Shown here: piece by piece, positions 696 through 1,022 of the stretch | Numbering within the stretch: the stretch's first letter is position 1 | Layout: each line of letters starts with the position of its first letter | IMG/VR virus record: IMGVR_UViG_2713896907_000005 | Location: 1-6,883 of that record | Source: a virus | Lineage: Duplodnaviria; Heunggongvirae; Uroviricota; Caudoviricetes | Reading direction: 5' to 3' (one strand) | DNA length: 6,883 nucleotides | Program-made: the position numbers and the translations under genes | Notes under the pieces: model-generated | The model's database searches: none | Told to the model about the DNA's origin: nothing | Seen by the model: only the letters and a program-made list of their open reading frames with translations

Positions 696-1022
696 TCATT
701 GATACCCTCTCTCACTTAATCGCGCCAACGCTTCGTTAAACTCTTCTCGGGTTGCGCCGGATTTTCTTTCTTCAAACATCAGGCATTCGCTGATGTCTCC
801 CCATGACTTTGGTCGCTTGTCAGCGAACAGGTCATCCCATTCGAATACCCAGCGGCCTGATTTTCGGTAGTGGTAAATGGTCAGCCATGTTGTGCTGTTC
901 GCCGGATACCCATAGAGAACTTCGACTTTTTGATCACGGTCTTTATGCTTTTTCAGCAGGATAAAGCCAGCAACCAGCGAAGCTCCGGCAAGAATGATGA
1001 TTGGTATTTGCCAGTCAGCCAC
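696..1022 (-). CDS. Hypothetical small protein with N-terminal hydrophobic (transmembrane-like) segment
   Basis: 108-aa ORF starting with GTG (rc of 1020-1022), preceded by GGAG-type SD. N-terminus IPIIILAGASLVAGFILL is strongly hydrophobic, followed by KKHKDRD. Not a lambda gene I recognise at this position. Confidence 0.55.
   Translation of the reverse strand: MADWQIPIIILAGASLVAGFILLKKHKDRDQKVEVLYGYPANSTTWLTIYHYRKSGRWVFEWDDLFADKRPKSWGDISECLMFEERKSGATREEFNEALARLSERGYQ

Follow-up and report, generated by a model that had tools for sequence, protein, structure and literature searches.

In phage lambda, ren and the tR2 terminator lead straight into ninB, and the lambda annotation is empty between the two genes (ren 40280-40570, ninB 40644-41084). 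The prophage DNA analysed here carries, at the same place, a 108-aa open reading frame (ORF) with a GTG start, lying on the minus strand between a tR2-like terminator and ninB. An earlier note on this DNA had described both arrangements correctly, and had proposed that the ORF is an extra small membrane-protein gene at a moron position, acting in superinfection exclusion or lysogenic conversion. The locus raises the question of whether this ORF is a genuine gene, how it came to lie behind tR2, and whether its position, expression and product fit such a role.

The window, by which we mean the whole stretch of 6,883 nt (positions 1 to 6,883 of IMG/VR record IMGVR_UViG_2713896907_000005, Caudoviricetes), covers the immunity and replication region of a lambdoid prophage, in reversed orientation relative to the lambda map. 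Its features are collected in Table 1. At the orthologous locus of the enteropathogenic Escherichia coli (EPEC) reference strain E2348/69, the counterpart of ren is annotated ‘protein ren’. The start of the dam gene overlaps the ninB stop codon (ATGA) and the gene continues past the window edge; the ninB-dam order is also found in E2348/69 and in Salmonella phage vB_SosS_Oslo. Scanned against Rfam over its full length, the window gave zero matches. None of 5426 complete E. coli genomes has 80% or more of the 6.9-kb window at a single locus (the best covers 71% of it at 93% identity), although its modules are individually common. The combination of immunity region, cargo genes, lambda-type O, P and ren, and nin cassette is a mosaic absent from the 5426-genome collection.

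Table 1. Features of the 6,883-nt window, in window coordinates
Feature	Position	Strand	Details
Dam-type N6-adenine methyltransferase gene, 5' part	1-230	-	Pfam Dam, E 1.2e-26
ninB (orf), downstream neighbour of the 108-aa ORF	227-673	-	Pfam NinB, E 1.7e-48
108-aa ORF	696-1022	-	Stop codon 698-696; Sf6 gene 46 orthologue, PHROG 5903 member
Conserved ~75-aa domain, residues 32-108	699-929	-	Four β-strands and a C-terminal helix (predicted)
Predicted transmembrane anchor, residues 6-23 (IPIIILAGASLVAGFILL)	954-1007	-	N-out, C-in (predicted)
NinA-like mini-ORF (MTIYITELITGLLVIAGLFIWGRVNRG)	1015-1098	-	27 codons, hydrophobic; spans the tR2 hairpin
Shine-Dalgarno region GGGGGAGAG	1029-1037	-	6 nt 5' of GTG; 3' end of the shared boundary sequence
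70-nt mosaic boundary sequence	1029-1098	-	‘bsq6; boundary sequence’ misc_feature in the Sf6 record
tR2 intrinsic terminator	1038-1069	-	8-bp GC-rich stem, 8-nt loop, T-tract; from terminator scan
ren, upstream neighbour of the 108-aa ORF	1095-1385	-	PHROG 142, Ren-like exclusion protein, E 3.1e-41
P	1382-2083	-	pR-operon order
O	2080-2979	-	pR-operon order
cII	3012-3308	-	pR-operon order
cro	3447-3647	-	pR-operon order
cI-type repressor	3748-4461	+	HTH_3 and Peptidase_S24
Two cargo genes, rexAB position	4548-5126 and 5123-6052	+	
N-type antiterminator gene	6497-6769	+	Pfam N_peptide, E 3.4e-32

The gene and its junction behind tR2

The GTG start (1022-1020) opens a frame of 108 codons and is preceded, two codons upstream, by an in-frame TAA, so no longer reading of the ORF is possible. 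The protein matches PHROG 5903 along its entire length (E 3.1e-73; residues 1-108 against profile positions 1-108 of 108), and a search of a 5.8-billion-protein database returned 58 homologues, the lowest at ~40% identity. Pairwise dN/dS values were 0.02-0.34 among six close alleles (this window, Shigella phage Sf6, Oslo, E2348/69 and two other E. coli genomes); these values show, for the sequences compared, that the close alleles are under purifying selection. Between the ORF stop and the ninB start lie 22 nt, which hold the ninB Shine-Dalgarno (SD) sequence GAGG at 682-679. It could be argued that the ORF is a chance frame, or the decaying remnant of a gene in a defective prophage, given its GTG start, its small size, an annotation of ‘hypothetical’ only, and the truncated or frameshifted state of some database copies (P0016-P0020, P0032 and P0038). 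We regard this reading as extremely improbable and, on the sequences compared, as effectively refuted by the full-length conservation down to ~40% identity; dN/dS well below 1, a confident AlphaFold2 model of the domain, and carriage of the gene by the viable phages Sf6 and Oslo all speak against it as well. Conservation thus indicates that the ORF is a real gene that encodes a protein, and not a chance reading frame.

The homology search recommended in the earlier note also placed the gene among known relatives. The product has 96.3% amino acid identity to the gene 46 protein of Sf6 (AAQ12235.1) and 94.4% to AMBK_59 of Oslo, and megablast found the gene at 95-99% identity in 108 of the 5426 complete E. 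coli genomes, on the chromosome every time. In E2348/69 (WP_000796283.1), the order cII-O-P-ren-ORF-ninB-dam is that of the window. The Sf6, Oslo and E2348/69 proteins are all 108 aa long (94-96% identity), start with GTG just after the tR2 boundary sequence, and are likewise encoded at the first position of the nin region. Oslo and E2348/69 resemble the window further in having ninB directly after the gene, whereas genes 47-49 intervene between gene 46 and ninB in Sf6. The window allele differs from the close alleles at 3-5 residues, of which E68D, M81L and W99L are unlike all five alleles compared. The earlier note had considered an orthologue at this position with a known housekeeping role; orthologues do occupy the same position in Sf6, Oslo and E2348/69, but none has a known role. 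Every record of the gene is annotated ‘hypothetical protein’, and we found no functional study of the gene or its family in the literature, including the supplements of one accessory-gene screen. Judged by these matches, the gene is already known, the allele found here belonging to a phage family (Sf6 gene 46/PHROG 5903) that is catalogued but uncharacterised; public phage and E. coli records have annotated it from the Sf6 genome onward, at what is a textbook lambdoid mosaic junction.

The structure of this junction is well defined. On the minus strand (1069-1038), the tR2 hairpin reads AGGCCTGC-TGGTAATC-GCAGGCCT, with a loop of eight nucleotides, followed by TTTTATTT, and has a folding energy of -16.8 kcal/mol; the Sf6 record labels the identical sequence ‘terminator, homology to phage lambda; tR2’. 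The hairpin belongs to a 70-nt block that begins at the ATGA ending the upstream replication-module gene (a helicase gene in Sf6 and Oslo, otherwise ren), takes in the hairpin with its T-tract and finishes with GGGGGAGAG. Comparison of the ren-ninB interval across lambdoid phages had been suggested in the earlier note, and with the junction aligned across lambda, Sf6, Oslo, E2348/69 and the window, the block differs at two single bases and is otherwise invariant. Lambda homology stops immediately past GGGGGAGAG, where the next bases are GGAAGTCATG in lambda, opening ninB, and TAAATCGTG in the window, opening the 108-aa ORF. When a phage database was searched with 501 nt covering ninB, the 108-aa ORF and tR2, 407 records matched some part of this query. 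Five records share the ORF as well as the boundary piece (query 416-501); in those listed after them, this piece is what matches, at 100% identity, and its annotated surroundings vary from record to record.

In lambda, the SD within GGGGGAGAG serves ninB. Because the boundary block is common to these phages and lambda homology stops directly after it, the SD is a shared one that serves to express whichever gene is first behind tR2. The earlier note had credited the ORF with its own SD; the motif does lie 6 nt before the GTG, but it is not peculiar to this gene. Between SD and GTG, the spacer reads TAAATC in the window and E2348/69, and GGAAGT in Sf6 and Oslo. As the alignment places it, the 108-aa ORF is a cassette swapped at a well-known recombination junction, forming the first gene of the nin region, and the shared SD shows cassettes being exchanged behind tR2 without new expression signals.

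The boundary block also contains the NinA-like mini-ORF, whose ATG overlaps the ren stop (ATGA) and whose TGA overlaps codons 2-3 of the 108-aa ORF. Sf6 gene 45, its counterpart, carries the annotation ‘similar to phage 21 NinA protein’, and in both of these phages the name ‘NinA’ refers to this 27-codon mini-ORF across tR2 and not to the 108-aa gene. The nucleotide conservation of the mini-ORF may reflect the terminator and boundary sequence rather than coding. Rare annotated variants of 133-137 aa (among P0002-P0014) have the mini-ORF fused in frame to the 108-aa ORF, arising via small indels in the G-rich SD region (equivalent to window positions 1023-1040), with IWGEGSV, ILGGGGV and IWGGGGEGSV among the junction peptides. 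The fusion clusters contain 1-2 sequences apiece, whereas the four clusters of full-length 108-aa proteins (P0001, P0009, P0012 and P0015) contain 65-244. The fusions may be natural two-helix proteins, homopolymer sequencing errors or products of longest-ORF gene calling.

Predicted membrane anchor and conserved domain

The hydrophobic N-terminal segment described in the earlier note, and with it the designation as a small membrane protein, is borne out by a Kyte-Doolittle maximum of 2.28 over 19 residues (2.54 over 17 residues, above the threshold for a transmembrane segment) and by a helix at residues 5-27 in the AlphaFold2 model. The N-terminus preceding the segment, MADWQ, has no positive charge, while KKHKDRDQK follows it, giving a count of lysine plus arginine of 0 before the segment and 5 after. 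The segment is present in 50 of 81 family members, and these anchored members have on average 0.26 lysine and arginine residues before the anchor and 4.02 between the anchor and the domain. By the positive-inside rule, this bias places the N-terminus outside and the C-terminus, with the domain, in the cytoplasm. The product is accordingly predicted to be a bitopic inner-membrane protein with a single pass, an N-out/C-in topology and a cytoplasmic domain.

Across the family alignment, the N-terminal segment is kept in character and not in sequence, whereas the domain that follows is strongly conserved. The domain is marked by the motifs VLYGYP, TWLTIYH-R, W-FEWDDLF and RPKSWG, and nine positions are invariant (Y37, G38, Y39, P40, T48, Y50, E61, L65 and F66), with many others nearly so. 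The AlphaFold2 model, built from a 35-sequence alignment, has a mean pLDDT of 81.5, with values of 60-67 in the N-terminal helix and 10-residue block means of 76-94 elsewhere, lowest at residues 61-70. Beyond the N-terminal helix, the modelled elements are four β-strands (residues 32-39, 46-52, 57-63 and 81-84) and a helix (residues 92-104). The core domain (residues 33-108) is acidic, with a pI of 5.4.

Many homologues have no anchor, among them P0031 and P0051 from lambdoid prophages and those of the virulent phages Goslar, KookSpook and IME207, which agrees with a cytoplasmic placement of the domain. Many of the anchor-less homologues have hydrophobic moments of 0.6-0.7; the fraction of shuffled sequences reaching the observed value was 0.04-0.25, so that an amphipathic membrane-binding helix in these proteins is suggestive, and not statistically supported.

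Searches for a known function or fold gave little beyond the family itself. Scans of the 108-aa protein against Pfam, NCBIfam and PADLOC returned nothing significant, and Pfam was equally empty for all 35 family members in the alignment; the weak, sub-threshold matches were confined to the hydrophobic N-terminus, which resembled single-pass membrane families such as FixQ. The only PHROG match, 5903, is annotated ‘unknown function’. Neither the single sequence nor the family profile found a match in PDB sequence searches (best E 1.1-1.3), and a PDB fold search with the model gave no significant match. With Foldseek against BFVD, the sole matches were the homologues in Goslar (E 1e-7) and IME207 (E 4e-5). 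An exhaustive HMM search of 1.84 billion cluster representatives yielded 39 matches at E ≤0.001, all but two of them at most 129 aa long (the exceptions, P0084 with 3904 aa and P0086 with 380 aa, both have E > 9e-6), and in none of the 39 is the domain fused to anything informative.

Genomic context and expression

At the lambdoid loci examined, the gene is co-oriented with, and lies shortly after, replication genes (lambda P, DnaB or primase-helicase), and it precedes NinB, NinG, RusA or Q; the one exception is a rearranged prophage (L010). In phage contigs of 53-72 kb, it follows a family-A DNA polymerase gene and an HNH gene, and in the T1-like phage IME207 it lies between primase/helicase genes. 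The neighbours in KookSpook, Goslar and one further locus (L018) are without recognisable function. This pattern of contexts points to a role early or in the middle of the lytic cycle. No conserved partner gene stands beside the ORF across the loci examined; a two-gene system was rejected on the ground that the neighbouring genes are not conserved, and the gene therefore appears to act alone. Two uncultured phage contigs with DNA polymerase A (L011 and L013) carry anchored homologues (P0026 and P0047), and nearby (L013 6412-7071) also encode a Bax1-I family membrane protein and a Lar-like restriction-alleviation protein.

In the window, the 108-aa ORF is co-directional and tightly packed with ren and ninB. 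A consensus scan of positions 200-1500 found no sigma-70-like promoter on either strand (shuffled sequences average 1.3), and the terminator scan found no minus-strand terminator between the ORF stop (696) and ninB. The composition of the ORF is close to that of its flanks, both in GC (0.486, compared with 0.502 for ren and 0.497 for ninB) and in GC3 (0.505, compared with 0.515 and 0.544). The ORF sits beyond tR2 in the pR operon, which the repressor controls, and the window includes an N gene. The analogy with lambda predicts that the ORF is silent in a repressed lysogen and is expressed only once N antitermination has occurred.

A moron, as defined in HK97 and HK022, is an independent promoter-gene-terminator unit, often of deviant composition, that is expressed from the prophage. 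Like morons, the 108-aa ORF is an extra gene found in some lambdoid genomes only and inserted at a gene boundary; unlike them, it has no promoter, terminator or compositional deviation of its own and sits in a repressed operon. Since promoter, downstream terminator and GC anomaly are all lacking from the scanned sequence, we read the ORF as an ordinary early-operon gene, and not as a moron or a prophage conversion cassette.

Elsewhere in the window, two overlapping plus-strand genes (4548-6052) take the place of lambda rexA and rexB between cI and N. The first encodes a DUF6932 protein of 192 aa (Pfam E 2e-26) with a weak PADLOC match to the candidate defence family PDC-M63A (E 2e-10), and the second a 309-aa protein of PHROG 18731, annotated as of unknown function. 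Both genes are markedly AT-rich relative to the rest of the window (GC 0.40 and 0.385; GC3 0.34 and 0.29). They look like prophage-expressed cargo, and possibly form a defence pair co-transcribed with the repressor; the moron idea fits this pair far better than it fits the 108-aa ORF.

Candidate roles and comparison with known systems

The explanation we favour begins, by analogy with lambda, with delayed-early transcription from pR, after N has enabled RNA polymerase to pass tR2. Translation would start from the SD of the boundary sequence, giving a product with a five-residue periplasmic N-terminus and one transmembrane helix (residues 6-23), then a juxtamembrane linker rich in lysine and arginine, and finally the acidic cytoplasmic domain of ~75 aa with its β-sheet and helix. 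The domain would be the functional unit, binding a host or phage partner, because the anchor varies in sequence, the domain is conserved and anchor-less homologues exist. In lambdoid phages, the anchor would keep the domain against the membrane's inner face while the phage grows lytically. The role would then be that of a dispensable accessory, as for other nin genes, in host takeover, counter-defence or early exclusion, and not in lysogenic conversion. Taken as a whole, the statement that this is a dispensable delayed-early accessory protein, with a cytoplasmic domain that engages a partner and is anchored at the inner membrane face, is one we hold to be probable, by a modest degree. Our confidence is much higher for the identity of the gene, its placement in the operon and the predicted topology, and it is low for the generic mechanism of partner binding at the membrane.

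The role put forward in the earlier note, in which a membrane protein made by the prophage blocks adsorption or DNA entry, or alters the host surface, keeps some appeal in that the protein is small and predicted to be membrane-anchored and that its position varies between lambdoid phages. Some exclusion proteins, such as Imm and Sp of phage T4, are also early products of lytic infection, and early-operon placement taken alone is compatible with such a role. We nevertheless judge an exclusion or conversion moron unlikely: the gene lacks a promoter and terminator of its own, has the GC content of its flanks and lies behind tR2 in the repressed pR operon, and its conserved domain is predicted to face the cytoplasm. 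Anchor-less homologues exist, the domain also occurs in virulent phages that form no lysogens, and the PADLOC, Pfam and NCBIfam searches gave no matches, including none to described superinfection-exclusion or anti-phage families (SieA/B, Imm, Sp, Cor, Llp, Rex and others). What is supported of the earlier interpretation is an extra gene, relative to lambda, with a predicted membrane anchor; the moron, exclusion and conversion roles attached to it are not supported.

A replication-associated membrane tether, similar to p16.7 of Bacillus phage phi29, seems to us marginally less probable again. Protein p16.7 combines an N-terminal transmembrane helix with a cytoplasmic domain, and organises phage DNA replication at the membrane. 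The architecture of the 108-aa protein is alike, with a small cytoplasmic C-terminal domain behind the helix, and the gene repeatedly adjoins replication genes in unrelated phages (lambda P, DnaB, primase-helicase and DNA polymerase A); p16.7 is also encoded by an early gene near replication genes. The likeness is, however, one of architecture only. We detected no similarity in sequence or fold to p16.7, nor to any solved structure, the acidic core (pI 5.4) is ill-suited to a DNA-binding module, and the anchor is optional in this family, many homologues being without it. Lambda, P22 and most lambdoid phages replicate without the 108-aa gene, and adjacency to replication genes may merely mark where early accessory genes accumulate.

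A bolder extension of the accessory-protein reading, which we offer tentatively and consider possible though doubtful, is that the YGYP/FEWDDLF domain is an unrecognised effector fold that neutralises a host factor at the inner membrane, and that the lambdoid versions gained potency via a transmembrane tether. If so, the fold would be common to temperate lambdoid phages and to unrelated virulent phages (T5-like, T1-like, jumbo and DNA-polymerase-A phages), and its candidate targets would be a membrane-associated defence system, a host protease or a division component. With an orphan-fold domain, an optional anchor and a distribution across temperate and virulent enterobacterial phages, the gene is a reasonable candidate for inclusion in a screen of accessory genes for counter-defence or host takeover.

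Among known systems, the accessory genes of the lambda and P22 nin regions (ren and ninA-ninH) are comparable to the 108-aa ORF in operon, tight packing and small size. No sequence relationship links the ORF to the named nin genes. The nin region is described as a tightly packed block of non-essential genes (PMC8022706), and the ORF is presumed to be N-dependent and dispensable like the lambda and P22 nin genes. The virulent-phage homologues (Goslar_00199 of Goslar, CDS0038 of KookSpook, ANW46780.1 of IME207, and those of the DNA-polymerase-A phages with P0026 and P0047) have the ~75-aa domain in common with the window protein at 40-51% identity, and keep the YGYP, TWLTIY and FEWDDLF motifs. 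They differ from it in their setting, being encoded among other neighbours in genome types unrelated to lambdoid phages, and the proteins of Goslar, KookSpook and IME207 bear a short basic or amphipathic stretch at the N-terminus in place of a transmembrane helix.
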